This document shows positions 1,566 to 24,817 of a DNA stretch of 29,183 nucleotides, in pieces; positions within the stretch are counted from its first letter, which is position 1, and every line of letters begins with the position of its first letter. The DNA lies in the IMG/VR virus record IMGVR_UViG_3300033182_000875, positions 1-29,183 of that record; one strand, 5' to 3'. The notes beneath the pieces are model-generated. The model worked only from the letters and a program-made list of their open reading frames with translations, was not told the DNA's origin and did no database searches. A program made the position numbers and the translations under genes. This DNA is from a virus.

Positions 1566-2357
1566 TTATTTGTTTTTTGATTTTAATGCCTTAAGTTGTT
1601 CAATTCTTGAAAACTTATTTTTGTTTAACATTTCAATGTACTCCTCTCTGTGAGTACGTACGCGTTCACCCGCAGGTTCGGCACTGAACTTTTGGAAGTT
1701 CTCCTGTAAGGTGTCGTATTTTTCTCTCATCAATTCCAATTCAGTATTCAAGTGGTTGAAACCAGCAGTGAAGACTTCCAACATTTCGTTGAAATCAACT
1801 TCCTCTGATAACTCCTCTTCAACAACTTCCTTTTCCTCAATTTTAACGATAACAGAATCAACCGTCTCAATGAGTTTTCCGTCAACAGTTTCGTGAATCG
1901 CATCAGGTGCGTCCGTCAAACCTTCTTCAGTTTTCACTTGAATCTTGTCACCAATCTTCAATTCCTCTGAGTCAGTCTCAACGATAGTACCGTCAATCAA
2001 TTCAGCCGTAACCATTTTTACTTCTTCCTCAACTTCAACTTCTTCTTCCATTACCTCTTCTTCTTTTTCGTCTTCGTTTTCTTCCATGACCTCTTCCTCA
2101 ACCTCAATAGGTTCAATGTAGTCAATCTTGGTGATTTCACCGTCTTCACCGATGATAAGTTTCATACCATCTTCAAATTCAAATGTATCCTCAGGTGCTG
2201 GTAGTTCACCCTCAGGGGTAACCACGTATAATTTCTTACCCAATTCCACATCACCTTCAACTTTCATTTCAACACCATCTTTGGTTTTGATTGAAGAGAA
2301 CTTTTCAGAACCGAACAACAAGTGTTTGATTTTTTCAATCGCTTCTTTACTTGTCAT
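1566..2357 (-). CDS. Scaffolding protein.
   Basis: 263 aa, extremely Glu-rich (EEEVMEENEDEKEEEVMEEEVEVEEEV), with a helical C-terminus. It sits between the head-morphogenesis/protease gene and the capsid gene. Confidence 0.7.
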   Translation of the reverse strand: MTSKEAIEKIKHLLFGSEKFSSIKTKDGVEMKVEGDVELGKKLYVVTPEGELPAPEDTFEFEDGMKLIIGEDGEITKIDYIEPIEVEEEVMEENEDEKEEEVMEEEVEVEEEVKMVTAELIDGTIVETDSEELKIGDKIQVKTEEGLTDAPDAIHETVDGKLIETVDSVIVKIEEKEVVEEELSEEVDFNEMLEVFTAGFNHLNTELELMREKYDTLQENFQKFSAEPAGERVRTHREEYIEMLNKNKFSRIEQLKALKSKNK

Positions 2358-4026
2358 GTTTTGTATCTTTAAGAATTTGTTTTATTCCTTCCATAAGAAG
2401 GTCTTCCTTGGACATTACGATTTTCTCGGTGAAGTAACCCTCCACTGAGAACCCCGCATAATCCCCATTTTTGATTTCTTCCCACACCTTTGGAGAATCG
2501 GTCTTCATCGTGATGACCCATGTCCCCTCAGGGTAGTCCAATCCCAAGGCTTTTGATTTGTCGTTGTTCTCATCCGTGACCAACCACGATTCAACAACAT
2601 AAGTACCCTCGGCTTTTTCATCGGTGTGTTCAATGTTTACACTGTCCGATAATTTGTCACGAAGGAATTTTTGTGATAAGGTCTTGATGGTTTCCTTTGA
2701 GAAATACACGTAGAACTCACGACCCATCATATCACGACGAATAATCAACTTCTCAGGTATCATTGCGGCACCTGTGATTTCCATTTTGTCATCGTCGTAA
2801 TTGAATGAGAATTGTTTACTGTTTTCACTCCTTACACAATTTGGAACCACTTTCCCATCTTTTACTTTTGTTCCATAAGCAACATATCCCGCTTGACACG
2901 GGTTCTCATATAAGAATGCGGTTTCTTCAACAACGGTCTTACCCGTTGAGTCAACATAAGGTTCAAGAGCACTTACGTCAATACTCATCTCCTCACGATT
3001 GATACGAGTTTCCAACCACTTCTCAGCGGAATCACACTCGTCCTTTGAACGACATCCCCATGCTGCCATGGCCAGTTTTCCACATCCCTCGTCATAACTC
3101 TTTGAGGTATCCAAATCCTTTCTGTGACGGGTGATGTAGTTCTTCATGCGTTTCATCGTCTCCAATGAAATCGGTTTTTTCTGTGCGAGTTGTTGGGCCC
3201 TGACTTTTCCTGTTTGGGTCATACAACCGTTTGGATTACCACTTTCCTCAATGTAATTCAGAGCGACTTGCGCTGCGTCCGACATGTATTGAGGGTAATC
3301 GGTAAATGACTCAAATTCCTCAGCACTCATTCGGTTCCTTCTTGCCCTCGCTGCGGCAGTTGGTTTGGTTTCCGTTGGTACGTTGATGAGGTATTGTGTC
3401 CCTTCCAAATTTCTCTTCCTCTTATCCGAAACCAAGATTCTGTTTTCGGTGGCTGTCTTACCAACTTCTTTTCCTTTGTAAACGAGTTCAACCCAATCGT
3501 GACGACAGTTGTACGAACCGCGATAAGTAAAAATATCATACTCACCGAATTCTTCGTTCGCCATCTCGTCCGTCATACGTTGGATGTCCTCAATACGATA
3601 GACACGACCCGCACTCATCATTGCGGCACAGAAGTCACGATTCTTACTGTCTTGTGGACCGACATATTTGTAACGGATTCTTGTTCCCGCATAATCCTGA
3701 CCTGAGACCTCATTGGGTTGTGATGAAATATCACCGACAAATTGGTGTTGATGGAACTTGAAACCAGGACCGATTTTCTTAACCGATACAATCTCAAATC
3801 CTTCCTCTTCCAATTGACCAGCAGGTTCACCCATCTTACCAAGAAGGACACCCAATTCATACATCTCCTCAGGGGTCAATCTCTCAAAGATTGGTTTTTT
3901 CTCTTGGTTAAACGCCATCCAATTTTCCTCATGTGCGGGATTTTTGACCAACGCAATACCGTCAATACCAATGAAGGTGTCAGCGGTCTCGTCCAACATG
4001 TCCACAAGTAACTCAACAATTCTCAT
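2347..4026 (-). CDS. Minor head protein: a Mu F / SPP1 gp7-like head-morphogenesis domain fused to an XkdF-like putative prohead protease domain.
   Basis: The central motif YRGSYNCRHDW is the Mu F-family signature. The C-terminal stretch VNIEHTDEKAEGTYVVESWLV...WEEIKNGDYAGFSVEGYF matches the XkdF pattern. The track ORF starts at a TTG (4032); the first ATG is at 4026 (MRIVELL). Confidence 0.75.
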   Translation of the reverse strand: MRIVELLVDMLDETADTFIGIDGIALVKNPAHEENWMAFNQEKKPIFERLTPEEMYELGVLLGKMGEPAGQLEEEGFEIVSVKKIGPGFKFHQHQFVGDISSQPNEVSGQDYAGTRIRYKYVGPQDSKNRDFCAAMMSAGRVYRIEDIQRMTDEMANEEFGEYDIFTYRGSYNCRHDWVELVYKGKEVGKTATENRILVSDKRKRNLEGTQYLINVPTETKPTAAARARRNRMSAEEFESFTDYPQYMSDAAQVALNYIEESGNPNGCMTQTGKVRAQQLAQKKPISLETMKRMKNYITRHRKDLDTSKSYDEGCGKLAMAAWGCRSKDECDSAEKWLETRINREEMSIDVSALEPYVDSTGKTVVEETAFLYENPCQAGYVAYGTKVKDGKVVPNCVRSENSKQFSFNYDDDKMEITGAAMIPEKLIIRRDMMGREFYVYFSKETIKTLSQKFLRDKLSDSVNIEHTDEKAEGTYVVESWLVTDENNDKSKALGLDYPEGTWVITMKTDSPKVWEEIKNGDYAGFSVEGYFTEKIVMSKEDLLMEGIKQILKDTKHDK

Positions 4027-4029
4027 TAC

Positions 4030-4041
4030 CAATAAATATAA
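4030..4041 (-). promoter_or_regulatory. Late-class motif TTATATTTATTG (minus strand), 3 nt upstream of the ATG at 4026.
   Basis: The plus-strand sequence caataaatataa is an identical 12-mer to 15419..15430. It contains a -7-like box, TATATTTA, and no TTTG lies 19-20 nt upstream. Confidence 0.45.
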
Positions 4042-4060
4042 ATTTGTCCCGAATAATTGA

Positions 4061-6085
4061 TTATATCAACGAACGGGTTTTAATGACCCTGTCAAGTTGT
4101 TGTTGAGAGGTCACATCTGAACTTACCACGTAAGTCTTTATCACCGGTGTTTCTTGGTTTGAAGGTTGAGAAGAACTTTGGTTCAATCCCTTGAATCTCT
4201 TTCCTCCACCGAGTTCGTTAATCAAAGATAAGGTCTCATAAAACATTCCCGTACTTCTTGCGTTGATTACGGCTTCCCCGTCTGAGAGCCTCGCAGTAAC
4301 GGAATCACTCATTGAGGTACCAGGTCCTTCAACCATACCCCCCGTGTTGAATGTTGGGATTTCCACAGAGTTAATTTCTTGAACCTGTTTCAAACCTGCC
4401 GCGATGATACCCGCAATCAATATCGGTTTCAAGATTGTTGGTAAGGTTTCATCTGAGATTACCTGTGAAGCACCAAGGTAAGTGTTGATGAGCGCCTGTG
4501 CGGATGCCGCCGCCTTACCTGCCGCAGTCTCCTCACCCAATATTCCTGTGAGTGCTTGTGCGGCGGCCCCTGCGGTCGCAATCTTCTTGTTCATCTGCTC
4601 AATGTCAAACTTGTTCAGATTTTCCTGAGACGCTTTGTACTGGTCATCGTATCTCTTTCTTATGAGGGCCTTTTCCGCTTCGGTCAAATTCTCATTCTCC
4701 AATTCCAACATCATACGTTGGTCAAGAAGTGTTTTCAACGCCGCAAGGTCTTCCTCGTTTTCAATTTCCAACAGTTGTAATCTTGCGTCCAAATCTCTTT
4801 GACGGATTTCAAGGACTTTCTGCTGTGCGGCATCCGCATCGTCAACCATCTTATCAAATCTTTCCTGTGCCTCTTTTTGTTCTTGGTCACGTAAGACCTT
4901 GAGACCGTTTTGGTATTTCTGTTCAACCTTGGTTCTGAGTTCCGCTTTCTCCTCATCACTGGCAACCAAAGTTTCAATTTGTTCCAATTCAGCATCACGG
5001 GTGATTTTGAGTTGTTCCTTAGCACGTTCTCTTTCGTCAGTAATCAATTCCAAATTAAGACCTTGACGGAAGTCTGCGAGCGCTTGCTCTTGGGCCTCAA
5101 TCTCTTTACGGACCCTTTCGGCTTCCGCAATCCTTTTATCATTCAACATCTTACGTTGGTCAAAGACCTGTTTCTCTTGACGAAGAGATTGTTGTTCAAT
5201 CTGTGCGAGTTTAATTCTTTGAGCCGCAAGAGCATCCAAAGTTTCAGCATCCGAATCACTTTGGGCCGCAAGGGTTTCCATCGCTTGTAACCTTTGACGT
5301 TCCAACGCAAGTTCTTGTTGGAGGAGTTCTTTCTCAGCCTCACTTACCTTCTCCAAGGCCTTAACCCTTTCATCGTAAGATAAAGTCTCGTCATTGATGA
5401 GTAACTTAGCGGCCGCAATTTCTTTGTTTTGTTCCGCACGAGCGACAGACAATTCTCTCGTCGCATCCTTTACTCGTTGGAGGGTTTCAGTCGCTTCCGC
5501 AGCAACACGGAATTCCTCGGCCATCTCGGCCCCAATCCCTGATACCGCACCTCTGAAATCTTCAACCGCACCTTTAAGGTCACCCTTGAAAAACTTCAGT
5601 AACGCACCACCAACTTTTAAGACACGGTCACGTAATACATCCATCACCGCAGACAATCCCGCCATGACTTTCTCCAATGTTTCCGCACCCGCCTTTGTTG
5701 AGGTGAACGCCTTATACAATGCGGTAACCGCAAGAACGATTGCCGTGATGACCGCCCCAATTGGGTTCATCGCAAGAGCCTTCAAAGCAGTACCAAATCC
5801 TTTGATACCTTGAACCACCTGACCGACAGGACCAGGGATTGACGATAGTTGGTCACCCAATCCCTTACTGGAATTTTTCGCTTTCTCAAGTGCCCCCTCA
5901 GCGTTCTTAACTTGTTTGGAGAGTTTCTTGAATTCCTCACTCCCAATTTCAGCCTTACCGAGTTCTGAGTTCAAATCACTCACTGCGGTGTTTAATCCAT
6001 CAAGGGATGATGCGGTCTTTTCAACTTCTTTAACCCCGTCTGCGGTTTCAATCTTTATCTTGTATGTAAATGTCTTATCTGCCAT
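4061..6085 (-). CDS. Tape-measure-like protein.
   Basis: 674 aa. It has a long Ala/Glu/Lys/Gln coiled-coil core, hydrophobic segments (AMNPIGAVITAIVLAVTALY and ILKPILIAGIIAAGL) and a C-terminal GGMVEGPGTSMSDSVTARLSDGEAVIN motif typical of tape-measure proteins. Confidence 0.65.
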   Translation of the reverse strand: MADKTFTYKIKIETADGVKEVEKTASSLDGLNTAVSDLNSELGKAEIGSEEFKKLSKQVKNAEGALEKAKNSSKGLGDQLSSIPGPVGQVVQGIKGFGTALKALAMNPIGAVITAIVLAVTALYKAFTSTKAGAETLEKVMAGLSAVMDVLRDRVLKVGGALLKFFKGDLKGAVEDFRGAVSGIGAEMAEEFRVAAEATETLQRVKDATRELSVARAEQNKEIAAAKLLINDETLSYDERVKALEKVSEAEKELLQQELALERQRLQAMETLAAQSDSDAETLDALAAQRIKLAQIEQQSLRQEKQVFDQRKMLNDKRIAEAERVRKEIEAQEQALADFRQGLNLELITDERERAKEQLKITRDAELEQIETLVASDEEKAELRTKVEQKYQNGLKVLRDQEQKEAQERFDKMVDDADAAQQKVLEIRQRDLDARLQLLEIENEEDLAALKTLLDQRMMLELENENLTEAEKALIRKRYDDQYKASQENLNKFDIEQMNKKIATAGAAAQALTGILGEETAAGKAAASAQALINTYLGASQVISDETLPTILKPILIAGIIAAGLKQVQEINSVEIPTFNTGGMVEGPGTSMSDSVTARLSDGEAVINARSTGMFYETLSLINELGGGKRFKGLNQSSSQPSNQETPVIKTYVVSSDVTSQQQLDRVIKTRSLI

Positions 6086-6095
6086 GATTTACTTT

Positions 6096-6103
6096 GAAAT
6101 ATA
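6096..6103 (-). promoter_or_regulatory. Weak late-class -7-like box TATATTTC, 10 nt upstream of the ATG at 6085.
   Basis: The minus strand reads TAA-ATTATATTTCAAAGTAAATC-ATG in the 20-nt gap between genes. Confidence 0.25.
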
Positions 6104-6105
6104 AT

Positions 6106-9100
6106 TTATCGTGGACATGAAGAACAATCGTTGTACGATAATCCCGTATCGTAAACATCGTATGGTCCACTGCCCGTTGAATTAATCTGCCAGCAATTTC
6201 CGTCATTACCTTTAACCACCTTACCAGGAACGTAGAATGTATTGGACCCCAATACTCTTGTATCCAATGGGTCATCACAATTTTCAACATTGTAGTAATT
6301 ACTCACCGATGGGAAATTGGATGGTGTTGGAGTTGGTGAAGGTGTCACCCCAGGGGTTGCCGTTGGTTGTGGTGTTGGAGATTTAATCGGTGTTCTTGTT
6401 ATGGACGGAGTTACCGTATTTGTCGGCGTTATGGATGGGGTTACCGTATTTGTTGGTGTGATAGATGGGGTTACCGTATTTGTTGGTGTGATAGATGGAG
6501 TCACCGATGGTGATGGTGTCGGTGTTGGGTTCGGTGGGTCTTCCTCGTAAAAAGCGTCAAAACCACCACCGTCAAGAAGAGTTGTTGTACAGGTACATCC
6601 CGACTGATACACATCCGTCAAGTCCACCCTTTGGTAAGTATATCCTGAATTGTAAGTTCCCGCAGAAACCGTGTAACAGGTTCCATCAATCTTCACATTG
6701 TATCCCTTGTATGCGTACACACCAAAGGTCAAATCCGTTGAGGTATGAAGGTCATCACCTCCACCACAGTTGATAAGGTCATAATACCTCACCCTGTGAC
6801 CAGGATATTGTTTGGTCAACTTAATCAATTCCACATCTGCCAGACCACCCTCCAATAATGAGTAGTTCCAAATTCTGTTGATACGGAATAGGGTGTTGTC
6901 CACAAATATCTTCTCAGAGAAATCCAACTCGGCGAGTTCATGAGGTTCAAAATACATCTTACAACTGACCAACCTGTTTTCATCAGAAATCAAATCCTCC
7001 ACAAAGTCCTTCCAATAGATGTCGTACAAATCTTCGTACTGAGATAAGTCTCTTTCATCCGCTGAATGTCTGTGGTCCTTGTTCCAGTTCATAGAATGTG
7101 TAAGTTCTGAAACCCCCCAAGGATATGTGATGAATCGGTTGTTGTTGTACCAATACTGTTGGGTCGTTGGTGAGGTTCCATCGGTATCTGCGAGATTCCA
7201 AAACTGAGTGGTTCCCGATTGTCTTACCGAGTTGATTGGAATTGGAACCGAACGGAACAACATTCTCGGTGGTGTCTTATATGGTTTGAACTGAGACGCA
7301 ACAATACCATCCACATCTTGGACCTCCTCCAAGAAATACATCGGCATTGTCAATCCCTTCACAAGGTCGGTCACGTTCAAAGTGTAATCCGTCTGTGAGG
7401 AGAAGATGTTGTCCATACCAATAATACGGTCACGGAAATCCTGATTCAATCTCACCTGATTACTTCCGAACTTTTTGTCCCTCTTGAATTTGAACAGTTG
7501 GTTACCATAACCCTCATCATCCGCATAAGTGAAATCAATCGTACCATTTAAGATGGTCTCAATCGGTTGAACATTGATGGGTTGACTCCTGTCCACCTTC
7601 TGTGTCCAATCCAAAGTCTGACCTTTACCCAACCAATCAATCACGGGTTCCACCCTCAAGGTCTTGGGTTTATCCGAATCAGGGATGACCAATAAATTGA
7701 AGAGTTTGTTGATACCCGTGATAAAGTCAATCTGTTTAACATTCGGGTCAGGTATTTCAATGGACGGGTCAAAGGTATCGTCGGTGATAAATCTCGGTCC
7801 ATCAATAATGTTGAATTGAACCGATGCGAGGTTAATCTGCCAGCCAGGAAGGGTAAGGTCAGGAACGAAGTCCAACGCATAAACATAGTTACCCGTGATG
7901 TTGTCATTTTGGAAAGAGAACCTTTCAACGATTTCTTGTGGTGCTTCACCCTCACGTAATACCCTCAAACTTGTGGAGTAAATGGTCTGACCCGTGTTGA
8001 AAGGTGTACCACCCGTCTGTGTTAAATCCCTCGTTCTGAATTTCATCTGATGAGGGATGATGACAGGGATATTCCCTTGGTCAGGGACATACGCAGTGTA
8101 TCGTATCTCCGCAGTATACAACCCTGGTTTACTCAGGTAAATGTAATTCGGGGAATAGTCACCAGCACCGAAGTTGTCGGTATCCGTATAGTTGTTCGGA
8201 ACACGGTAACAATCTTCATTACCATTGTCAGTATCAGTGAAGGTGATTGATGTCGTTGGAATACTTCCTCCCGTAATCGGTGTATACTCATTTGAGAATT
8301 GGTATTCAGGAACGTAAGAGTTCAACGGATACAAGGTCTCATTGGAGAAGGTCAATGGGGTATACAATCTGTTGAAGTATGCGGTGTCCATAAAATCACT
8401 CTCAATGGTGTAACCGGCCTCAGAGAAAATCCTCTCGTAAAAGATTTTGGTTTTGATACTTGGAACCATATACCAATCAGGAACGAAATACGCCGTTGGT
8501 GAATCCACATCCCAGAAATCATTGGATGTTTGGGACGGATACGGCCAGTTCAGACGGGGAACATCCGAAGCAACAATTTCTTGAGCCCCCGTGACGTTAT
8601 CCGCAACATATGAGTAACCCTTGTTGATGACGGTCATATACACATCACCGTTTACATACGGACGGGTGTCCGCAGATAAAGACGGGTCCAAGTCAGGGTC
8701 CGTAAGGTAATGGTTGACCACCTCAGTATATCCCGTGAAAGATAAGTCCTGTAAATCCAAATCCCCAAGGTACTTATCCCCGATGTTGGAAACCACATCA
8801 CCAATCTGATTGTAAAAGGTAACCGAATAAATAATCTCGTTCTTAATCCTTGATACCGACTCCAATCTCAAGAACCCCTGATACAGAATCATCCCGTTGT
8901 CAATGAGTTCACATTCAAATTTCCTGCGAGCCTCATAGTCAAGGGTCAACGCATTGAAATCGTAGTAATGATTGAAGATGTCGTTGTTGTTCTTACTTCC
9001 TGGTAATTTGAAGGACTGAGTAAACACGGAATTCTTTACCGTGATGTCCTCAATCTCCGCATATGAGATGGATACCTTGATATCCTCATCTCCATAAAAA

Positions 9101-9147
9101 TCAATGAGTCTGTGTTTTCCGTTTAAGGTCGTTCTTATCTGTAACAT
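6106..9147 (-). CDS. Large tail/baseplate protein. It carries two paralogous C-terminal Cys-containing modules separated by a repetitive Pro/Thr linker.
   Basis: 1013 aa. The C-terminus reads YYDLINC...DGTCYTV...GCTC, then the linker [11 protein letters not shown]([10 protein letters not shown])x3..., then YYNVENC...DGNCWQI...CSSC. Confidence 0.6.
6401..6520. repeat. Tandem 30-bp repeat, about 3.5 copies, encoding ([10 protein letters not shown])n of the Pro/Thr linker.
   Basis: Units lie at 6401-6430, 6431-6460 and 6461-6490, with a degenerate unit at 6491-6520. Copies 2 and 3 differ at one position. Confidence 0.9.
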
Positions 9148-9150
9148 GGA

Positions 9151-10968
9151 TTACCCTTGTGTATTGTAGTCGTTTATTGGTGTGTATTCCAACACGAATC
9201 TGTATTGAGTGATTTTGTTGTATCTGTTTTTGAATTCCTCAATCATATCTGTCCTTAATGTAACAGGAAGGAGATAAGGGTTGTATTCTTTCTCCGTTCC
9301 CAATTTGTGGTCCTTCATAATATAAACCTCAGGGGACATGAATAGGTCTTCAACAATCTGTAAGTCATTGTCCTCCAAATACCATGTGGATACATTCATC
9401 GTCTCCACGATGTCTTGGTCAAATATCACCTGACGTCTCTCACTTGAAAGTTGAGAGTATACCGACAAGTTTCGGATACCACCCTGTTCGTAAGTCTTCC
9501 TTAGAATACTCTTGGTCTCCACACTCTTTCTGTCCAATGTCCATGTATCCCAAACTCCTTGACGGTTTAAGAACAACACATGGACAGGGTCACTCAGACA
9601 ATCATCTTCCTCAATGTAAAACTCAAGTAGTTCACTGTATGCGTATCCGTCATATTCGTAATCACCAACATCACCTGCCGTCCAAAACGCAATCTTACCA
9701 CCAGGATTTCTTGTTGATGTTGTCGTGTTTAATGGATAAGTCATGAAACTCTTGATGCTCTTATTGGTCGGTGTTCTTCCTGTGAAGGTATTTCCGTCAA
9801 TGGAATATTCTGAGATGGACGCTGCGTCATATGAGGTTTGGTCAGCACTGGTAACCATCGTAAAACATCCAAGGTCATTGTCAAATTGGAATTCTGTATC
9901 CGTTGAGATTTGACCATTGAACCAACTGACAATAATCGGACAGTCAGGGTGGTGTCTTCGTCTGCGTGCTCTTGAAGTGGTGGAACCGATGTTATTATCG
10001 TTCACATAAAAGTGTTGTGGTCCCGCAGTGGTCAAGAACAAAGATGGTTCTTCATCATTGACCGTGGTTCCACTCATTCTGTATTTCTTCACTTCCCAAA
10101 ATTGATGTGAGTTTTCAGGTGAGGTTGAATCCCAATATGGATTGTTGTATACACTTGAGATGTACGACCCTTCATCCAATGATGTCCCCGGCCAGATGTA
10201 TACCGCTGGTGGTGATAGTGATGGGTCATATTCTGATGGGTTGTTCTGTCCTGAATCCACCCATTCTTCACCGTCATAAGTGAAGACCCATTGAATACCT
10301 GAATATTTCTCTTCCACCACAATCGTATTTCCTGATGCGGGAATTGGGAAGGCCGTTGATAGGGCAACAGAACCGTCTTCTGTGGAGGTTTCCCCTGATG
10401 CGGAACCAACCCATGTAACACCTTTTTCATATGAGGAACCTTCCACGATTCCTGAACCTGCCCCATACCAATAAATGGTTGAACCGACCAATTCCGCATA
10501 AAACGATGAACCTGGTTCTTGGGATTGGTCAGAGATGTTGATGATGGTTCCCCCTGATAAAGACCATTGTTCACCAACCATCACCCTGTAATCTCTTACA
10601 TGGTATCTCTGTGGATATTTGGAATTTCCGATGTATGAGTTTTGATTAAACGGACCATTGGTATTGGATACCAACCCATAAGCCGTTGTTCCTGTTGTTG
10701 ATACTGATGTCCATTGGGAGTTATCACTCATCGCATTTCCTTGAACGTAATTTTGAATGATTTTGTCCACGTTGATGATACCCACACCATAAGTGTTTGG
10801 TGAGACCAACATCCTTGATACTTTGGTTGGGTTAGATGTGGTGGTATCCACATAGATGTCCACCACATATCTGAAATCTGTATTCCCCGTATTTGGTGAC
10901 GAGAAATTGTATATGTGTTCCACATTACTCGGAGTGAGTGGTAGTGGTCGTTGTAAAACTGTTATCAT
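9151..10968 (-). CDS. Tail structural protein of unknown family.
   Basis: 605 aa, Ser/Thr/Gly/Asn-rich. Its start forms an ATGA overlap with the upstream gene, and only a 3-nt gap separates it from the downstream gene. Confidence 0.5.
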   Translation of the reverse strand: MITVLQRPLPLTPSNVEHIYNFSSPNTGNTDFRYVVDIYVDTTTSNPTKVSRMLVSPNTYGVGIINVDKIIQNYVQGNAMSDNSQWTSVSTTGTTAYGLVSNTNGPFNQNSYIGNSKYPQRYHVRDYRVMVGEQWSLSGGTIINISDQSQEPGSSFYAELVGSTIYWYGAGSGIVEGSSYEKGVTWVGSASGETSTEDGSVALSTAFPIPASGNTIVVEEKYSGIQWVFTYDGEEWVDSGQNNPSEYDPSLSPPAVYIWPGTSLDEGSYISSVYNNPYWDSTSPENSHQFWEVKKYRMSGTTVNDEEPSLFLTTAGPQHFYVNDNNIGSTTSRARRRRHHPDCPIIVSWFNGQISTDTEFQFDNDLGCFTMVTSADQTSYDAASISEYSIDGNTFTGRTPTNKSIKSFMTYPLNTTTSTRNPGGKIAFWTAGDVGDYEYDGYAYSELLEFYIEEDDCLSDPVHVLFLNRQGVWDTWTLDRKSVETKSILRKTYEQGGIRNLSVYSQLSSERRQVIFDQDIVETMNVSTWYLEDNDLQIVEDLFMSPEVYIMKDHKLGTEKEYNPYLLPVTLRTDMIEEFKNRYNKITQYRFVLEYTPINDYNTQG

Positions 10969-11522
10969 GATTCTGTAAGTTTTAATACTGTGTTGTTTAA
11001 GAATTGTTCCACCATCTCCTCAAACTTTTCGGGGAATACCTCCTCAATAAGTTTGGTGATGTTTTCAATACTGCGTCCGTAAAATCCTGTCGGTTGTATT
11101 CCGAACTTCCAAATGTTACGACGAATTGCGAAGGCTGCCGAGAGTGGGTTCTGAAAGCCTTTACCACGAGCCCATGATTCAAGAGCCGTAATAAAAGGGG
11201 AGTTTCCACCACTTCCTTTTCCATTCAAATATTGTGGTTGTGGATTGACTCCTCGGTCCACGAATTGTCCATACCCAAACATCTCAATGTCCAAAGAGTT
11301 TGTTTCAGGATTCCATGTGGTGGTGATACTGTTGGAAAGAGCACCCGAACCGAACTGAGACTTGGGTGCGTTTCCTGCGTATGCGGGATTACGACCCTGA
11401 CCATACGCATTCCCATCATAACCTGGTGCGTATGAATAGAGTTGGTTGAGTTCCAACTTGAAAGTCTCACTCAACATGGAACCCCATTGAACCATAAACA
11501 TTTCAAATTGCTGTTCGTCCAT
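10965..11522 (-). CDS. Hypothetical virion protein.
   Basis: 185-aa ORF, translationally coupled on both sides (TAATG and ATGA overlaps). No family recognised. Confidence 0.6.
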   Translation of the reverse strand: MDEQQFEMFMVQWGSMLSETFKLELNQLYSYAPGYDGNAYGQGRNPAYAGNAPKSQFGSGALSNSITTTWNPETNSLDIEMFGYGQFVDRGVNPQPQYLNGKGSGGNSPFITALESWARGKGFQNPLSAAFAIRRNIWKFGIQPTGFYGRSIENITKLIEEVFPEKFEEMVEQFLNNTVLKLTES

Positions 11523-12025
11523 TATTCAAAATCATTGATTGGTGAGACACACCTGTCAAGAGGTGAATCCACCACGATGTTTAATGTGGTATTCCATCCA
11601 ACCAAGATGTCGTCGTATCTCTCTGAGAACGGGGTCATCTGAGCAGGAAGGGTGATGTCGTACTTTGATTCGTAGTCACCATCTGCTGTGGTCACCGCAT
11701 ACTTGAACTGAGCGAGGATGTCCTCACTGATTTGTAAGGTGTCCGAGAACAAGTCCGTTTCAATGTCGTAGTTCTTGGTGTTCATAATATCCGCAATGAT
11801 GATTTGGAACGGATACGTGATTTGTCTCTCATCACGGGTAACCACCTGAGGGATGACAAACATCAACGGGTAAATGGGTTCACTGTTTTCCGTGTTGTCC
11901 TCCCCGTCAATCTGTTGGGTAAGATAAATCAGTTGGGTGATGTCCCCCGTCCCGAAGGAGTTAATCTGTTTGTGTTTGTCCGCAAGGAGGGACAAGTCAT
12001 CAATTATGTTTTTGTAATTTATCAT
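11522..12025 (-). CDS. Hypothetical virion protein.
   Basis: 167-aa acidic ORF. Its ATG forms an ATGA overlap with the stop of the upstream -1-frame reading frame at 12022. Confidence 0.6.
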   Translation of the reverse strand: MINYKNIIDDLSLLADKHKQINSFGTGDITQLIYLTQQIDGEDNTENSEPIYPLMFVIPQVVTRDERQITYPFQIIIADIMNTKNYDIETDLFSDTLQISEDILAQFKYAVTTADGDYESKYDITLPAQMTPFSERYDDILVGWNTTLNIVVDSPLDRCVSPINDFE

Positions 12026-12797
12026 TTTCTGAATTGTTTTTCCATTTCTCTGTTTCGTTTATTGGTAAGGTCACTCATATACGTCATAAAGTTCAAGACC
12101 TCAAGGTGATGTTTTGAAACCACCCTGTCAATGTTGAGAATGTTCTCCCCTGCCAGATAGACGATTGTTGAATACCATCCAAACGGGTTTTTATCCATCT
12201 CCTCAAATTGTTCTTCGTCTGAATCATCCACCATCTGCTCAGGAAAGAGTAAGGGGTATTTTGACGTAAGATGGTTCCGATATTGTAAAAAAAAACCATC
12301 GCTCCGTTGAGGTACTTCATGGGTAATCGTCTGAAGAGTTCTGCGTTCTTCTTAATCCTGTCAATCTCATAAGGGAGGTAATCCCCGTTTTCATCAACCT
12401 CGTGATACAACATACTCATGAACAAACTGAGTTTAACTTTCCTCTCCGTCTCAGGGAGTTTTAAGTATTCGTCAATATCAACGAATTGTCCGAAGGTCAT
12501 GTTCCCCATATCAAAGAACTTGTATGTCTTTCCCGCATATTCAAAGGTCTCGTAAAACTTGGTGGACTGATTCAGGTAATAATCAATAATTCCTTCGGCA
12601 GCCGTAATGACCGATGATGCGGATGCTTGAGAGATTTCGTCCTCATCCAATCCTGTTGTCCATGAGATAAGGGATACCCCCATCTCAATGTCGTTCTTCC
12701 AGTTGATGTGGTTGGAAATCATCCCCCACGTATCCAAGGTCGGTTCTTTGACCTCGTATTCTTTTCCATCGTATTCAATGTAATGGGTTTCCTTCAT
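12022..12797 (-). CDS. Tail-assembly-chaperone-like protein. The 258-aa product requires a -1 shift at the U9 run. The 0-frame ORF as given is 12093..12797.
   Basis: The 0 frame after the U9 run becomes Trp/Arg/Gln-rich junk-like sequence. The -1 frame is open from the run and encodes plausible protein (DDSDEEQFEEMDKNPFGWYSTIVYLAG...). The -1 frame ends in an ATGA overlap with the next gene. Confidence 0.55.
12287..12295 (-). other. Slippery homopolymer (U9 on the mRNA): candidate -1 programmed frameshift site or homopolymer assembly error.
   Basis: The minus strand reads ATG GTT TTT TTT TAC. This contains the heptamer U UUU UUU in the X XXY YYZ register of the 0 frame. Confidence 0.5.
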
Positions 12798-12802
12798 ATT
12801 GG

Positions 12803-12810
12803 TAAATATA
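12803..12810 (-). promoter_or_regulatory. Late-class -7-like box TATATTTA, 5 nt upstream of the ATG at 12797.
   Basis: The minus strand reads AAATATATTTACCAAT-ATG in the 33-nt gap after terL. The box is embedded in the 10-bp palindrome AAATATATTT. Confidence 0.35.
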
Positions 12811-12830
12811 TTTGTTTTGATTGTCTCACT

Positions 12831-14057
12831 TTAATACAGGTAATAAGAACCTGTGGTTTTCTTTTGTTTGAGGGTGTTGTAACAAATCGCAAGACTCATC
12901 ACACAGTCATCGTGGTGTCCCGTCATCGCCTCATACCTGATGGTCCTTGACTTTGGGTTGTATTCAAAGGTGAAGACCTTCATCTCATTATACAGATAAG
13001 GGAACAACTCGGATGTTGGTAACTGGATGGAACGCTCATTGGACGCATAAATCAAATCTTCAATGATGTTGGTCTTACTGCTATTTGTCGTCACAAATGG
13101 GTGGACCTGTTGGTATCGTGATTTGATTTGTTCGTAGATGACATCCCCGACATTGTTGACCTCAATCCCCAACTGACAATTGTATCTCTTACAAATCTTA
13201 ATGACGTTGTCCACCAATACATCCCATGGTTTGTGTCGGTCTCGGTAGATGTTGACCACCCTGCCGTTTTGGTCCATGATGGTCAGAACCGTGTAATCGT
13301 CATTACGACCCAAATCCAATCCACCGTAGTATTTCTTCTCAGGTCTCTTGGGTTCCCATTCGTGGACCGTACAATACTCGTCCAACTCCTTGAAGACCTC
13401 ACCACCTGAGTCAATGAACTCACCCATTATCTCCTGTTTGAAGACCTCCTCAGGTAATGTCCTTCTCGCCTCTTCCAATTCCTCTGCTGAGATGAACGGG
13501 GTATCGTATGATGTTCCCCGTAAGGTGAGGTATGACTTTTGGTCGTTGTCCAATCCTCGTTGGTTCAAGGAATACAGAAAGTTCTTTCCCTTTGGAGTGG
13601 ATATGAACAACACCTTTTTCCCTTTGACCAATACTGTTGGTTTTAGGACCGTATCCCAAACTTCTGTTTTCATGAATGCCGCCTCGTCACAGATGAGGTA
13701 ATCCAAGGTGTGACCCCTGAGTCCATCAGCCCTCTCAGCAGACCTGAACAGAATCTTACTCCCATTGACAAAGGATATTTCCATCTCTGAGATGTTGGTC
13801 TGTTTGTGGACGGGTGTACCCTTGATTGCCTTATCAAGAATTTCAAACGCATTCTTGGATTGTTTGTATATGGGGGATACCCACATACATTTGGTGTTGG
13901 ACTTACTCAATCCCCATTTGAGTATCATGTTAATACCCAACATGGTCTTACCCCACTGACGACCAGTAGTTAAGACCACGTATTTCTCCTCACCTTGTTC
14001 AATGAGGTTTATCTTCTCCCTTTGGTCGGGATGGGGGGTAAATCCTTTTACCGTCAT
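12831..14057 (-). CDS. terL: Terminase large subunit.
   Basis: 408 aa. Walker A-like TTGRQWGKT and Walker B-like YLICDEAAF are present, together with a C-terminal RNase H-like nuclease motif, GGLDLGRNDDYTVLTI. Confidence 0.9.
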   Translation of the reverse strand: MTVKGFTPHPDQREKINLIEQGEEKYVVLTTGRQWGKTMLGINMILKWGLSKSNTKCMWVSPIYKQSKNAFEILDKAIKGTPVHKQTNISEMEISFVNGSKILFRSAERADGLRGHTLDYLICDEAAFMKTEVWDTVLKPTVLVKGKKVLFISTPKGKNFLYSLNQRGLDNDQKSYLTLRGTSYDTPFISAEELEEARRTLPEEVFKQEIMGEFIDSGGEVFKELDEYCTVHEWEPKRPEKKYYGGLDLGRNDDYTVLTIMDQNGRVVNIYRDRHKPWDVLVDNVIKICKRYNCQLGIEVNNVGDVIYEQIKSRYQQVHPFVTTNSSKTNIIEDLIYASNERSIQLPTSELFPYLYNEMKVFTFEYNPKSRTIRYEAMTGHHDDCVMSLAICYNTLKQKKTTGSYYLY

Positions 14058-14206
14058 TTCATAATACTTTGGATGTATTGGTCAATGGAGGTAAATCCAT
14101 GTTTTTGTTTTTCCTCTTTGAGTTTCTTATGAGTCTCTGACTTCACATAAATCATCTTCGTGTCGTACTCGTAATCTCTTCCTCCAGTTTTTCTCTTAAT
14201 TTTCAT
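14054..14206 (-). CDS. Ribbon-helix-helix (Arc/MetJ/CopG-like) DNA-binding micro-protein, 50 aa. It is absent from the ORF track.
   Basis: My own translation is MKIKRKTGGRDYEYDTKMIYVKSETHKKLKEEKQKHGFTSIDQYIQSIMK. It shows a beta-strand then helix-turn-helix pattern. Its ATG overlaps the terS end by 11 nt, and its stop forms an ATGA overlap with the terL start. Confidence 0.6.
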   Translation of the reverse strand: MKIKRKTGGRDYEYDTKMIYVKSETHKKLKEEKQKHGFTSIDQYIQSIMK

Positions 14207-14648
14207 CTCCGAATTTGAATGTTATTTCACCCATGTGGTTGATGTCAACCGCATCAGGTTCGTTTAGTCCGCCCATTCTCGCAAGGTCGTTAAGGGTCTG
14301 TCGGGCGGTATTGAAATCCCCTTTGTCCACACTCTTGGAATACAAGTCCCAATATGCGTTGATGTGTTTGGTAATCATCTTGTCCTTTTCCATTTTGAAT
14401 TTCTCCTCCACGGTTTTCCATGAGTCCTTCCAGTATTTGTTACAACGGTCTTTGGAAAGTGAGAAATTCTTCTTACACCATACGATGTATTGGGTGTATG
14501 AGATATGGTCTTGGAATATCTTGTCAATGGACCTTTTCCTCAGGTCTTGGATTTCCGCATTGGTGAGGGTTACGTTCTTACTCCCCTTTGGTCTTCCTCC
14601 CTTATTTTTTTGTGGTTCGTTTTTTTCCATTTGTAGTTTTTGTATCAT
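14196..14648 (-). CDS. terS: Putative terminase small subunit.
   Basis: 150 aa. It has a basic N-terminal DNA-binding stretch (KNKGGRPKGSKN) and a helical body ending in ARQTLNDLARMGGLNEP. It lies upstream of terL. Confidence 0.55.
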   Translation of the reverse strand: MIQKLQMEKNEPQKNKGGRPKGSKNVTLTNAEIQDLRKRSIDKIFQDHISYTQYIVWCKKNFSLSKDRCNKYWKDSWKTVEEKFKMEKDKMITKHINAYWDLYSKSVDKGDFNTARQTLNDLARMGGLNEPDAVDINHMGEITFKFGDEN

Positions 14649-14904
14649 TATTTACAATCAATCTTTTATACTCGTGATGGATTGCGTTAACCACTCGTAT
14701 CACACAGTCTTTACAGTTCCTGTTGAACGCATTTTGACTGGGGAAGAGTTGGAAGTATACGTCCTCCACGAAGTCCCATTTTTCGTTGTTCATTGACGAC
14801 ATTCTTGATGTCATTTCGTATGCTTGTTTGAGGTCATCCAAATTGACGTTGGTCAATGAGGTTATGTTGTTTCCTTTCTTTTGTTTACAGGTGTTACATC
14901 CCAT
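14602..14904 (-). CDS. Small CxxC...CxxC (putative zinc-binding) protein with a basic tail.
   Basis: 100 aa. Cys pairs lie at C3/C6 (MGCNTC) and C64/C67 (NCKDC). The gene overlaps the sigma-like gene by 11 nt and terS by 47 nt. Confidence 0.55.
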   Translation of the reverse strand: MGCNTCKQKKGNNITSLTNVNLDDLKQAYEMTSRMSSMNNEKWDFVEDVYFQLFPSQNAFNRNCKDCVIRVVNAIHHEYKRLIVNNDTKTTNGKKRTTKK

Positions 14905-15415
14905 CGTTATTGATTTTGTTTTCCCATCGTTTATTGAGTTCGGATTTGATGTTTCTGATGTATGTCCCGACGCTGTTTAAGGGGATGGTGGTTTCCTTGT
15001 GGACTCCCACCAGTGTTCCTTGTTCCAACCACAAGAGGAAGAGGTCTCTTTCAAACCAATCAAACTCTTGTAGTTCTTGGTATACCCAATCCATGGTTGG
15101 TTCTTGATTGGTATGTTCTTGTTCGTACCGTTCTTGGTTTGGATTGAACTCCGTGTGTTTATTACGGAGTTTTATCCTTTGGTATTGGAACGGTGATGTT
15201 GAAGAATTCCAATTGTTTTTGACCACCCTTATGAAGTAGTATTTCTTCTGTGTGTCGGGGACTTCATTGAACTTATCGGGTTTGTTGAGGATTTGGTATA
15301 CGACATCAGAGAAGAGGTCGTCCGTTAATGCGTCCCCTTTTGTTATCTTTGTCGTAATGTCCCTCAACTCGTCGTAATTTTTGTTGAACCAATCATTCAG
15401 ATTCATCCCATCCAT
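14894..15415 (-). CDS. ECF-like two-domain sigma factor (regions 2 and 4 only).
   Basis: 173 aa. The N-terminal stretch YDELRDITTKITKGDALTDDLFSDVVYQIL...YYFIRVVKNNW fits the region 2 pattern. The C-terminal stretch FERDLFLLWLEQGTLVGVHKETTIPLNSVGTYIRNIKSELNKRW fits a region 4 HTH. It is the first gene after the early terminator. Confidence 0.55.
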   Translation of the reverse strand: MDGMNLNDWFNKNYDELRDITTKITKGDALTDDLFSDVVYQILNKPDKFNEVPDTQKKYYFIRVVKNNWNSSTSPFQYQRIKLRNKHTEFNPNQERYEQEHTNQEPTMDWVYQELQEFDWFERDLFLLWLEQGTLVGVHKETTIPLNSVGTYIRNIKSELNKRWENKINNDGM

Positions 15416-15418
15416 TTA

Positions 15419-15430
15419 CAATAAATATAA
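15419..15430 (-). promoter_or_regulatory. Late-class motif TTATATTTATTG, 3 nt upstream of the ATG at 15415.
   Basis: Identical 12-mer to 4030..4041. It lies 19 nt downstream of the terminator at 15450..15475. No -33 TTTG is present. Confidence 0.45.
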
Positions 15431-15449
15431 GGTTTTTGTATAAAAAGAA

Positions 15450-15475
15450 AAGGGGATGACATTACTCATCCCCTT
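15450..15475 (-). terminator. Rho-independent terminator closing the early region.
   Basis: AAGGGGATGA pairs with TCATCCCCTT: a perfect 10-bp stem with a 6-nt loop. On the minus strand it is followed by TTCTTTTTA. It lies 5 nt after the stop of the 15481..15705 gene. Confidence 0.85.
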
Positions 15476-15480
15476 TGTTG

Positions 15481-15705
15481 TTAATTCAAAAGATTGTCGT
15501 CGGTGACTTGTCCGACTTCAATGTCTGTGTCTGCCAGTTCTTCATCAGGAATGGTCATGACCTTGATGAGAAGGTTGATGGGTTCATCGGTGACTTCTTC
15601 AATCTTCTTGGTTTTGTGGTTGATGATGTACATGGTCAGGTATTCGTATTCTTCCACACAGGTCATCATGAGTTGTCCGATTTGTTTCTGTTCTTTCTTT
15701 GTCAT
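15481..15705 (-). CDS. Hypothetical early protein with an acidic C-terminus.
   Basis: 74-aa ORF with an ATGA overlap to the upstream gene. No family recognised. Confidence 0.55.
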   Translation of the reverse strand: MTKKEQKQIGQLMMTCVEEYEYLTMYIINHKTKKIEEVTDEPINLLIKVMTIPDEELADTDIEVGQVTDDNLLN

Positions 15706-16436
15706 TTCGTTTGTTTGTATTTTGTGATGATTGTTGAAACGGTCCCCCTTGAGATTCCAACTTTCTTTGAGATTTTTTTTTGTGAGAGTCCTTGGTTGTA
15801 AAGTTCCATCACCTCTTCTTTGTGAATGGTTTGTTTGTTTGGTTTTGTCGTCCCGTATTTCTTGAGGATTCTTGTGATGGTTCCATTGGAGATTCCTGTT
15901 TCTTCTCTGATTTGTTTGACATCGTATCCTTTGTTTCTCAGGGCCATGACCTCGTCGTGGTGCTTTTCCACCAAGGTCACCTTTCTCTTTCTGTTCTTCC
16001 CCTTGTAGTTGGTTTGGTAACCGTGTCTTGCCAGCCAGTAGTAAATACCTGACTCAGACAGTCCGATGGTTTCCGCAACCTTTTTGTATGAGACTCCCTT
16101 CTTGAGTTCAGAGATGATGTAGTCCAAATTGTCTTCCACCTTTGAACGTCTTTCAGGAACGGGTTTCCATCCACGGTTTTCATACCAACGGTTCAATTTG
16201 TGGTAGTTAAGTTTCAAACCTTGAGAATGTCCCTTTTTGTCTCGGTTTCTTTCTGAGTATCCCAACTCCTCCACTGCGTCAGTCCAAGAGAGGTAAGGGT
16301 CTTCACACAGGAGATTGTACAACCTTCCCATGAAATCTGCTGAAAACTTTGACTGTTGAGCCAGAACGGCTCTTCCTTTGGTGATTGGTTTGTCTGACCA
16401 ACTGTTGAGTCTTTGTTGAATTTCTTTGTAGTTCAT
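15702..16436 (-). CDS. DNA-binding protein with three tandem helix-turn-helix modules.
   Basis: 244 aa. Three modules are evident: KKGVSYKKVAETIGLSESGIYYWLARHGY, NKGYDVKQIREETGISNGTITRILKKYG and NQGLSQKKISKKVGISRGTVSTIITKY. Confidence 0.7.
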   Translation of the reverse strand: MNYKEIQQRLNSWSDKPITKGRAVLAQQSKFSADFMGRLYNLLCEDPYLSWTDAVEELGYSERNRDKKGHSQGLKLNYHKLNRWYENRGWKPVPERRSKVEDNLDYIISELKKGVSYKKVAETIGLSESGIYYWLARHGYQTNYKGKNRKRKVTLVEKHHDEVMALRNKGYDVKQIREETGISNGTITRILKKYGTTKPNKQTIHKEEVMELYNQGLSQKKISKKVGISRGTVSTIITKYKQTK

Positions 16437-17329: not shown

Positions 17330-17361
17330 CAAATATACGGTATTATTTGGTATCATCCAAA
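17330..17361 (-). promoter_or_regulatory. Early promoter P1 (Bacteroidota sigma-A type).
   Basis: The minus strand reads TTTGG-N-TATATTTGTA, with 20 nt between TTTG and the -7 box. The box lies 38 nt upstream of the ATG at 17292. Confidence 0.75.
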
Positions 17362-17390
17362 TAAATCATCCAAATAAATCATCAAATCAA
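17352..17390. repeat. Tandem 13-nt repeat, about 3 copies (atcatccaaataa x2 plus the degenerate atcatcaaatcaa).
   Basis: Seen directly in the sequence. It spans the last codons and stop of the sigma gene and duplicates the TTTGGATGAT segment that supplies the -33 element of P1. Confidence 0.8.
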
Positions 17391-18156
17391 TGGATTCATT
17401 TCTTAGTCTCCTTAAGGACTTCTCCTTGATTTGTCGGACCCTTTCTTTGGTCAATCCCAATTCATCTCCGATTGCCTGAAGGGTCATTGGAGACCCAAGG
17501 TAACCGTAGTATGACTTAACCACGAACTGTTCCCTTTCATCCAGTACTGAGAAAATCTCATTAACCTTATCCTTGAGGATTTGTTCTTGGTCTTCAAACT
17601 CATCAGGAGCCTCACAGTCATGGTTGATTAAGAGGTCCTTCATGGTCCCTGTTTCCTCATCATCACCAAAATGTTTGTCAAGAGATTCTGTCCTTGGGAT
17701 ACTGTGGTATTTGTCCTCGTGGTACCAGTCGTCCATCAACGGTTGTTTCTTTTGTTTGTTGATTTCTTGTACGATATTGACCGGTAATCTGATGGTCCTT
17801 GAGTAACTGTTTAGGTAGTCCATAATGGATTGACGAATCCACCATACCGCATACGTGAGGAATCGGGTCTCAGCCGACCAGTCAAATTTATCAAGGGCTT
17901 TCAAAAGACCGTAGTTCCCTTCCGCAATGAGGTCCTCAATGGGAACCGAATTGGTTTGGAATTTCTGTGCGGTCGTAATGACGAACCTGAGGTTACCCTC
18001 AATCATTTCGTTGTTTATCTCGTCTCTCTGAGACTTTGTCAGGTCTCCTGATAGAACCATTGTCTTAAGTTCCTTTTCTCTCTCAGGAGTGACGATAGGA
18101 AGTTTACGGATGTCTCTGAGGTATTCCTCAATCCGTTCAGTTTGTAAGTAACTCAT
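17353..18156 (-). CDS. Sigma-70 family RNA polymerase sigma factor with regions 2, 3 and 4 (RpoD-like architecture).
   Basis: 267 aa. IEGNLRFVITTAQKF fits region 2.1/2.2. EDLIAEGNYGLLKALDKFDWSAETRFLTYAVWWIRQSI fits region 2.3/2.4. RTIRLPVNIVQEINK fits region 3. MTLQAIGDELGLTKERVRQIKEKSLRRLR fits region 4.2. Confidence 0.9.
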   Translation of the reverse strand: MSYLQTERIEEYLRDIRKLPIVTPEREKELKTMVLSGDLTKSQRDEINNEMIEGNLRFVITTAQKFQTNSVPIEDLIAEGNYGLLKALDKFDWSAETRFLTYAVWWIRQSIMDYLNSYSRTIRLPVNIVQEINKQKKQPLMDDWYHEDKYHSIPRTESLDKHFGDDEETGTMKDLLINHDCEAPDEFEDQEQILKDKVNEIFSVLDEREQFVVKSYYGYLGSPMTLQAIGDELGLTKERVRQIKEKSLRRLRNESIDLMIYLDDLFG

Positions 18157-18276: not shown

Positions 18277-18296
18277 TGTAGTTGAGGTTTGTGTGG

Positions 18297-18579: not shown

Positions 18580-18616
18580 AGTTGTTGTTTTTAGTAGTTG
18601 TTGATTGATTACATGA

Positions 18617-18647: not shown

Positions 18648-18675
18648 ACTTTTGACCACTTTTTTCAAAAAAAAA

Positions 18676-19830: not shown

Positions 19831-19838
19831 TAGTGATA

Positions 19839-24802: not shown

Positions 24803-24809
24803 ATACTGT

Positions 24810-24817
24810 TAAATATA
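24810..24817 (-). promoter_or_regulatory. Weak late-class -7-like box TATATTTA, 7 nt upstream of the portal ATG.
   Basis: The minus strand reads AAATTATATTTAACAGTATAT-ATG in a 37-nt gap. Confidence 0.25.

Follow-up and report, generated by a model that had tools for sequence, protein, structure and literature searches.

The sequence analyzed here, IMG/VR virus record IMGVR_UViG_3300033182_000875 (29,183 nt, referred to throughout as the window), carries short AT-rich boxes built on the heptamer TATATTT directly ahead of genes for the portal and other late proteins. The explanation that best accounts for the data as a whole is that these boxes form a late promoter class common to an entire phage family, with a phage-encoded, extracytoplasmic function (ECF)-like sigma factor as its likeliest reader, a composite view that we hold with confidence and doubt in equal measure. 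Its individual parts differ in strength. From sequence comparisons, the late boxes appear very likely to be promoters, and a promoter class is strongly supported in silico; the identity of the factor that reads them is a more tentative matter. The phages concerned form an uncultured family of ~25-31 kb genomes that infect Bacteroidota, probably of the class Flavobacteriia.

The late box and its conservation

Four late boxes were found on the minus strand, which carries nearly all genes of the window, and they occupy gaps of 20-37 nt before their genes. These are TATATTTA at 12803-12810 (element 12797..12810), upstream of a 234-aa gene (ATG at 12797) that directly follows TerL (12831-14057); a box at 4033-4040 (element 4027..4040), upstream of the gene for a MuF-like protein with an S78 protease domain (2347-4026); a box at 24810-24817 (element 24804..24817), upstream of the portal gene (23693-24802); and TATATTTC at 6096-6103 (element 6090..6103), upstream of the gene for a tape-measure-like protein (4061-6085). 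A fifth box in the late region, at 15422-15429, precedes the ECF-like sigma gene and is treated separately below.

The initial annotation had drawn attention to a 12-mer, TTATATTTATTG, and this is indeed present in exactly two copies, at 4030-4041 and 15419-15430 on the minus strand, each 3 nt from an ATG. When up to one mismatch was allowed, shuffled sequences averaged 0.27 matches, and at least 2 matches occurred in 1 of 100 shuffles. The related boxes that had been listed ahead of the ATGs at 12797, 24802 and 6085 were found again at 12803-12810, 24810-24817 and 6096-6103, and the coordinates of the three best cases (12803, 4033 and 15422) bear out a spacing of 5-6 nt between box and ATG. 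Measured from the 8-mer to the A of the ATG, the distances are 5 nt (12803), 6 nt (4033), 6 nt (15422), 7 nt (24810) and 10 nt (6096); measured from the first T of the box, they are 13 nt (ATG at 12797), 14 nt (4026), 14 nt (15415), 15 nt (24802) and 18 nt (6085). A published in-silico definition of leaderless genes looks for a -10-like TANNNT whose first T lies ~12 nt upstream of the translation start (PMC3160421), and all five window boxes conform to it.

The heptamer is concentrated where promoters would be expected. TATATTT occurs 14 times on both strands of the window, and all 12 copies on the gene strand fall in non-coding DNA, which makes up 7.0% of the window; an unbiased motif count run on this non-coding DNA returned TATATTT as the top 7-mer. 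Each of the five copies of TATATTTA lies in a gene-strand gap. The longer pattern TATATTT-N5-TA also has five copies, all in gene-strand gaps and four of them at the late gene starts, whereas 500 shuffles averaged 0.89 copies and reached 5 at most. A scan of the window for E. coli-type promoters returned 33 sites where 37 were expected and was uninformative.

The box at 12803 sits inside a palindrome, AAATATATTT (12801-12814), so that a TATATTTG box also reads on the plus strand at 12807-12814, antisense into the 3' end of TerL. There is no plus-strand gene at that place.

Early promoters of the window served as the contrast set. These precede genes in a block of small early genes (~15.5-22 kb) and have the textbook -33/-7 architecture of Bacteroidota, TTTGG-N18-19-TA(T/C)(A/C)TTTG-TA, in which the box is typically TATATTTG; their boxes lie at 17330-17337, 18617-18624, 19173-19180, 19521-19528, 19839-19846, 20371-20378 and 20848-20855, all on the minus strand. 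The late boxes had been described as lacking the -33 element, and none of them has TTTG at that distance, but the box at 6096 does have a TTG, which begins at -24, shifted by one base from the early-class position, and is the sole late box of the window with such a sequence. The companion claim that every early promoter has a -33 element is nearly true, the exception being a minus-strand box in the early region at 20985-20992, which has none and carries TA at +5/+6.

This atypical box (20979-20992) reads TATATTTG-TAAG-TA, with the T-A at +5/+6 that is otherwise late-type. It lies just past a gene ending at 21002 and 15 nt ahead of a 46-aa open reading frame (ORF) that itself holds the next early promoter, and it may be a late or middle promoter into the early genes or a chance match. 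An additional TATATTTA box, overlooked by the initial annotation, lies at 22122-22129 on the minus strand in a divergent regulatory region, with TTGACA 16 nt upstream; because the TTG of this TTGACA occupies the early -33 position, we class the box as an early type ending in A, and it has no TA at +5/+6. The early -33 element itself (17338-20400, minus strand) is longer than TTTG and reads TTTGG-(A/T)G-(G/A)-(A/T)(A/T/G)-C, as in TTTGGAGGAAC, TTTGGCAGAAC and TTTGGTGGTTAC; relatives have TTGGTTGA, TTGGTTCA and GGTGGAAC at the equivalent place. The added bases may serve as an extended contact or as a binding site for a second factor.

Conservation among relatives provides evidence that the late box matters. 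Related contigs were retrieved from IMG/VR, metagenomes and Logan/ENA assemblies by means of TerL, MuF, portal and the ECF-like protein; a search of IMG/VR with the sigma protein as query returned no related loci. TerL of the relatives is 44-63% identical to that of the window, and intergenic sequence is otherwise unconserved, yet the relatives place the box before the same four starts. Ahead of the post-TerL gene, the box stands 5-8 nt from the ATG in ~10 lineages, sometimes as TATACTTA or TATATTAA. For the tape-measure-like gene, the distance is 5-22 nt, with orthologous boxes in L013, L014, L037, L048, L055 and L057; for MuF, it is 5, 6 or 17-20 nt in L037/L038, L009 and L012-L014; and for portal, it is 7 or 9 nt in L013, L069 and L037/L038. 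Because the 8-mer is conserved at orthologous positions in gaps that have otherwise diverged, there is strong evidence that the box is functional. The relatives (203 kb scanned) contain 39 copies of TATATTT-N5-TA, of which 35 lie on the gene strand, and 24 of these are followed, 0-5 nt past the A, by the start of an ORF at least 45 aa long.

To characterize the motif, we classed boxes by the kind of gene that they precede, not by sequence, and aligned 29 non-redundant late and 19 early boxes. The late consensus is an A-rich stretch, T, TATATTT(A), N4, T and A: T stands at -1 in 23 of 29 boxes, positions -6..-2 are A-rich, and the base at position 8 is A in 19, G in 4, T in 3 and C in 3. At the end of the element, all 29 boxes (29/29) have A at box+6, and 27/29 have T at box+5. 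Early boxes instead have TTG(G) at -23..-20, then TATATTT(G/A), then TA, and are unconserved at +5/+6.

The box of the sigma gene was left out of the statistics, which thus compare 28 late with 19 early boxes; the late boxes form orthologous sets, and the counts are not fully independent, which lessens their weight in favor of a separate class. TA at +5/+6 marks 27/28 late against 3/19 early boxes (Fisher p=1e-8). The opposite bias is seen for TTG at -26..-17 (5/28 late against 14/19 early, p=2e-4), for TTTG in the same interval (0/28 against 6/19) and for TA directly after the box (6/28 against 11/19). No k-mer at -40..-14 of the 28 late upstream regions rose above shuffles, which argues that there is no hidden -35 element. 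A weak G/T/A signal in the sequence logo at -19..-14 appears, by eye and in portal-upstream examples, to reflect stop codons of the upstream genes.

Position 8 was considered as a class marker and rejected family-wide. The five late-region boxes of the window have A, A, A, A and C there, and A or C against G does separate the two classes within the window, apart from the box at 22122, but the distinction breaks down across the family: late boxes of L037/L038 end in G or T, and early boxes of L002, L013, L056 and L057 end in A.

Predicted start sites and leaders, and the factor that may read the box

The late box-to-ATG distance ranges across the family from 5 to 33 nt, and the T-A follows the box, not the ATG: by hand count, it keeps its place in 19 of the 20 late boxes whose ATG is at least 6 nt away. 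Because the distance to the ATG varies and the T-A is fixed, a promoter with its start site is favored over a translation element. The invariant A stands at 5-nt spacing after the box and is preceded by a pyrimidine, consistent with the spacing of transcription start sites (TSSs) in Bacteroidota, where the sigma-A box lies at -12..-5 in F. psychrophilum (PMC9723704) and the TSS lies 4-5 nt past the -7 box in F. johnsoniae (PMC6847099). The N-termini of the post-TerL gene orthologues align from Met1, so the invariant A is the A of the ATG in the 5-nt cases, and the TSS cannot therefore be downstream of that A. We consider it probable, on this comparative ground, that the invariant A is +1.

With this assignment, the predicted +1 of the post-TerL gene is the A of its ATG at 12797 (T-A at 12798/12797), giving a leader of 0 nt. 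The predicted +1 is A at 4027 for MuF/protease (leader 1 nt), A at 24804 for portal (2 nt) and A at 6090 for the tape-measure-like gene (5 nt). In the tally of late boxes for the family, ~80% of leaders would be 0-5 nt and the rest 10-28 nt, if the A is +1. The proposal that these genes give leaderless late mRNAs thus survives in part: a second class of boxes without a -33 element and with starts at or next to the ATG has comparative support, but only the gene at 12797 would be strictly leaderless. Of the five window genes, then, one is strictly leaderless by prediction and the others would carry leaders of 1-5 nt, and the transcripts would be leaderless or nearly so, not uniformly leaderless.

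The model that we favor can be outlined as follows. The boxes would be the core, -10/-7-like element of a late promoter class common to the uncultured Bacteroidota phage family. RNA polymerase would initiate at the invariant A six bases past the 8-mer with no -33 contact needed, so that the 5' end of late transcripts would be the A of the AUG itself (12797) or a position 1-5 nt ahead of it (4027, 24804 and 6090), and these leaderless or near-leaderless mRNAs would be translated alongside any read-through polycistronic RNA. Host sigma-A would read the early genes, the ECF-like sigma would be made, and the late promoters would then fire. Such a cascade is suggested by the location of the sigma gene behind a terminator with its own box of a different type. 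That some phage factor, not the unmodified host sigma-A holoenzyme, reads the late boxes is somewhat better than an even proposition; that this factor is the ECF-like sigma is plausible but falls short of that. The most specific form of the model, in which an ECF-type sigma initiates family-wide without -35 contact at TATATTTA-N4-TA, with the host -7 box copied and the start hard-wired, and in which most head and tail mRNAs begin no more than 5 nt from the AUG, is rather unlikely to hold in every part.

The ECF-like sigma gene (14894..15415, minus strand) encodes a protein of 173 aa, or 170 aa from Met4, that is diverged but a credible sigma. It matches TIGR02937 (sigma70-ECF) over its full length with E=5e-7, at 29.4 bits. 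Among its homologues, 22/23 match TIGR02937 (best 2.7e-10) and 19/23 match Sig70_bacteroi1, a Bacteroidetes ECF subfamily. An AlphaFold2 model (pLDDT 83.7) has two helical domains, sigma-2-like and sigma-4-like, and the top Foldseek matches are almost all ECF or ECF-like sigma domains, with probabilities up to 0.99 and a TM score of ~0.3. A profile search of the family against PDB sequences returned only a LysR helix-turn-helix (HTH) and told less than the fold comparison. By profile hidden Markov model, the gene was recovered from all related loci that extend over the region upstream of TerL, the most distant relatives and L054-L057 among them.

The box of this gene appears to belong elsewhere. 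It is TATATTTA at 15422-15429 (element 15416..15429, minus strand), just past the terminator, and has AA, not TA, at +5/+6. All orthologues of the sigma gene begin at Met4 of the window protein (ATG at 15406), so the box may be 15 nt, not 6 nt, from the true start. In L002, L010/L066 and L069, the corresponding TATATTTA boxes are at least 21 nt from the start and without TA; a GC-rich hairpin with a T run also lies just upstream in L002 and L010/L066. The initial annotation had grouped this box with that of MuF on the strength of the shared 12-mer, a grouping contradicted by the missing TA signature and by the leaders of at least 21 nt in relatives. It is probably, judging from these sequence features, a different and earlier promoter type, which fits a product needed before late-gene transcription.

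Several observations weigh against this model. Leaders of 1-5 nt are not strictly leaderless, and leaderless mRNAs are rare in the likely host phylum: they make up 5.5% of mRNAs in F. psychrophilum (PMC9723704), 3.7% of 5' UTRs in B. thetaiotaomicron are <10 nt, and in F. johnsoniae 87% of leaders are >10 nt (PMC6847099). The timing implied by "late" is inferred from gene function only. The TIGR02937 score of the ECF-like protein lies below the curated NCBIfam cut-off (42.9 bits), and its Foldseek matches reach an E-value of 0.016 at best, which is weak. As a rule, ECF sigmas rely on a -35 element that bears an AAC motif. Their cognate promoters have a CGT-type -10 (PMC9723704), and both the AAC-type -35 and the CGT-type -10 are absent from the late boxes. 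Finally, late boxes and early promoters have an identical TATATTT core, which agrees with the Bacteroidota -7 consensus, and a genome-wide -33 signal can hardly be detected in F. johnsoniae (PMC6847099).

The last two points lead directly to the most serious alternative, that the late boxes are ordinary host sigma-A promoters, of the early class but weak, squeezed into short gaps. Their timing would have another source, for example displacement of sigma region 4 by a phage protein (as by P23-45 gp39 or T4 AsiA), replication or an activator, and there are precedents in which sigma-4 displacement favors -35-independent promoters (PMC7403470). With the -33 element barely detectable in F. johnsoniae, a missing -33 does not exclude host sigma-A. 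Position 8 is no help, since it is not class-diagnostic: L037/L038 have late boxes with the canonical G, and L002 and L013 have early boxes with A. Canonical sigma-A features of Bacteroidota, namely the near-invariant G at the end of the -7 box and the TTTG/TTG at -33, are nonetheless not those of the late boxes, and the five late-region boxes of the window have A or C at the position of the nearly invariant G-5 of F. johnsoniae sigma-A; the missing -33 by itself is not decisive because the element is weak in some Bacteroidota. In addition, the late set has a T-A of its own at +5/+6 (27/28 against 3/19) and mostly lacks the early-type TA directly after the box (6/28 against 11/19), and a sigma-family gene kept family-wide would still need a role. 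We regard this alternative as unlikely, though it deserves serious attention.

A second sigma gene in the window offers another possible reader. This RpoD/sigma-A-like (primary-type) gene (17353..18156, minus strand) encodes 267 aa with regions 1.2, 2 and 4, and the RpoD/RpoS-like product matches Sigma70_r2 (6e-17) and r4 (1.5e-13). It shares 50-53% identity with thousands of cellular proteins that carry a primary sigma factor annotation and are 262-280 aa long, a size that fits Bacteroidota sigma-A, which is without region 1.1 (PMC6847099). As a diverged sigma-A that kept the -7 contact and could dispense with the -33, it might read the late boxes; it is a full sigma, its sigma-A-like region 2 would account for the core common to the late box and the host -7, and its gene is located in the early region. 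It is, however, in no relative examined, including L002 and L069, which run from portal to TerL and span the whole early region, and the relatives keep the late boxes all the same. The protein therefore cannot be the family-wide reader, and we consider this explanation improbable. The ECF-like sigma is the better candidate because it is conserved family-wide and the RpoD-like one is unique to this phage. By its distribution, the RpoD-like gene looks like a recent, lineage-specific acquisition; contigs with the 51%-identical protein P0029 are of ambiguous gene content (DnaJ, amidase and Hc1).

The motif might also act in RNA, as an AU-rich enhancer of translation initiation or as a U|A endonuclease processing site near start codons; the initial annotation had named an AT-rich translation-initiation element as its alternative. 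The box does stand 5-10 nt before the ATG in ~80% of cases, the genes lie inside apparently continuous operons, and Bacteroidota are without Shine-Dalgarno sequences and prefer A-rich, unstructured upstream regions (PMC6847099). No Shine-Dalgarno-like sequence was found upstream of the window genes. Against this reading, the distance to the ATG varies over 5-33 nt, whereas the T-A keeps its place behind the box; the invariant A can be at +1, -1, -2, -3, -4, -5 or further, not at the favored -3; the 7-mer is the core of bona fide early promoters with a -33 element; exact sequence conservation exceeds the needs of AT-richness; and there was no match to an Rfam family. We judge it the least probable of the explanations considered here.

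Genome context

The window ends, 1-141 and 29043-29183, are an exact 141-nt terminal direct repeat, and because they are identical we take the window to be a complete, circularly assembled genome of ~29.04 kb. A strong hairpin terminator with an 11-bp stem followed by a T run (15449..15476, minus strand) divides the early operon from the sigma/TerL operon. A second hairpin terminator, at 29-42 on the minus strand and 3' of the gene at 60-599, appears twice owing to the terminal repeat. A tRNA scan and an Rfam scan of the window gave no match.

Four minus-strand genes, from 29036 down to 24840, follow a strong terminator without a TATATTT box. The only sequence that they have in common with L013 at the equivalent place is AAGCCAA, and they may be read by terminator read-through or from a third promoter type. 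The early operon is closed, immediately ahead of its terminator, by a minus-strand gene (15702-16436) for a 244-aa protein with two or three tandem HTH domains, which matches HTH_23, HTH_28, sigma-70 region 4, Terminase_5 and Cbp1; this could be a transcription regulator or a small-terminase-like protein. The sole plus-strand block (22173-23109), divergent from the early genes, holds a zinc-finger-like 144-aa ORF and the gene of an HTH protein that weakly matches sigma-70 r4 and Crp HTH. Its layout resembles a repressor or switch region, and no integrase match was found among the window proteins scanned.

No cultured relatives came out of a phage collection that was searched for near-identical DNA and with the TerL protein; the best TerL match in the collection was 30% identical, to Thermus and Meiothermus phages. 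Among the uncultured relatives, the metagenome-assembled genome labeled "uncultured Flavobacteriaceae bacterium FRAM18_bin221" includes at least 3 contigs of ~24 kb that are distant relatives of the phage (L054, CAJIZF010000008; L055, CAJIZF010000005; L057, CAJIZF010000007), with TerL, the ECF-like sigma and late boxes. At least in part, this bin is made up of phage genomes, which is also a hint at Flavobacteriaceae hosts.

Significance and comparison with known systems

Almost nothing is known about the timing of transcription in Bacteroidota phages other than the crAss-like ones, and full-text literature searches returned no description of such a late promoter class in this phage group or host phylum. 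If the model is true, leaderless or near-leaderless translation would be the main route of late expression in a setting where such mRNAs are otherwise ~4-6%, and the phages would provide a natural test of 0-5 nt leaders on the ribosomes of a Shine-Dalgarno-free phylum. It would also supply an example of an ECF-like sigma acting without a -35 element and, for an important and genetically awkward phylum, a small candidate sigma with a compact and portable late promoter of ~14-20 bp. In metagenomic phage genomes of the family, TATATTT-N5-TA before an ATG could sharpen the calling of start codons and operons.

The late boxes resemble the sigma-ABfr promoter of Bacteroidota (-33 TTTG, -7 TAnnTTTG) in their TA..TTT core and in the distance to the presumed start, with the box at about -13..-6 or -12..-5. 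Unlike that promoter, they are mostly without a -33 TTG, are without G-5 in the window and have T-A at +5/+6.

T4 late promoters consist of an 8-bp TATA box read by gp55 (PMC2988020). As in T4, the conserved feature here is a lone AT-rich 8-bp box, placed roughly one helical turn upstream of the start and unaccompanied by a -35, and the small phage sigma-family protein that reads the box in T4 has its parallel in the candidate reader proposed here. The proteins differ, in that gp55, which acts together with gp33 and gp45, is similar to sigma domain 2 alone, whereas the ECF-like protein has both sigma-2-like and sigma-4-like domains. No homology to gp55 was detected, and neither gp33 nor a sliding clamp was matched by the window proteins scanned against PHROGs or Pfam, in scans that did not cover every ORF. 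Because the sigma has two domains and no gp33 or sliding-clamp match turned up, we do not consider this a T4-type system. T4 late mRNAs are not known to be characteristically leaderless.

In phage phiEco32, the promoters of gp36 have a -10-region consensus only, AATGTA centered at -11.5 (PMC12276001). By analogy, gp36 provides a precedent for -10-only promoters read by a two-domain phage sigma; it too is highly diverged and serves middle and late transcription. The motif and the host are different, the phiEco32 -10 element does not mimic the host -10, and gp36 requires gp79, which also shuts off sigma-70 and has no counterpart identified here. In common with both T4 and phiEco32, the window has a single -10-region element without a conserved -35 and a co-occurring phage sigma-family gene.

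The Thermus phages offer a further comparison. In phage Lalka27a, most transcripts are leaderless and the late promoters have a -10 element of their own (bioRxiv 10.64898/2026.04.20.719267). As in the Thermus phages, temporal classes of promoters have a common TANNNT-type core and a differing consensus, the late promoters are without a -35 and densely spaced before structural genes, and the TSS, here a predicted one, falls 6 nt past the -10 element; there, most transcripts begin with the A or G of the start codon, and P23-45 promoters of the middle and late classes are likewise independent of a -35. The systems differ in several respects. The host phylum of the Thermus phages is rich in leaderless genes, in contrast to the ~4-6% of Bacteroidota hosts, and their late element, TAGGGT or an extended -10, does not copy the host -7. 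The mechanism proposed there is modification of the host sigma-A holoenzyme by a phage factor (in P23-45, gp39 acting on sigma-A), whereas here a sigma-family gene is conserved, and exact 0-nt leaders are predicted here for only some genes, from sequence alone. The kind of mechanism is thus already known from T4, phiEco32 and the Thermus phages, which among them combine -10-only late promoters, phage sigmas and leaderless late mRNAs.

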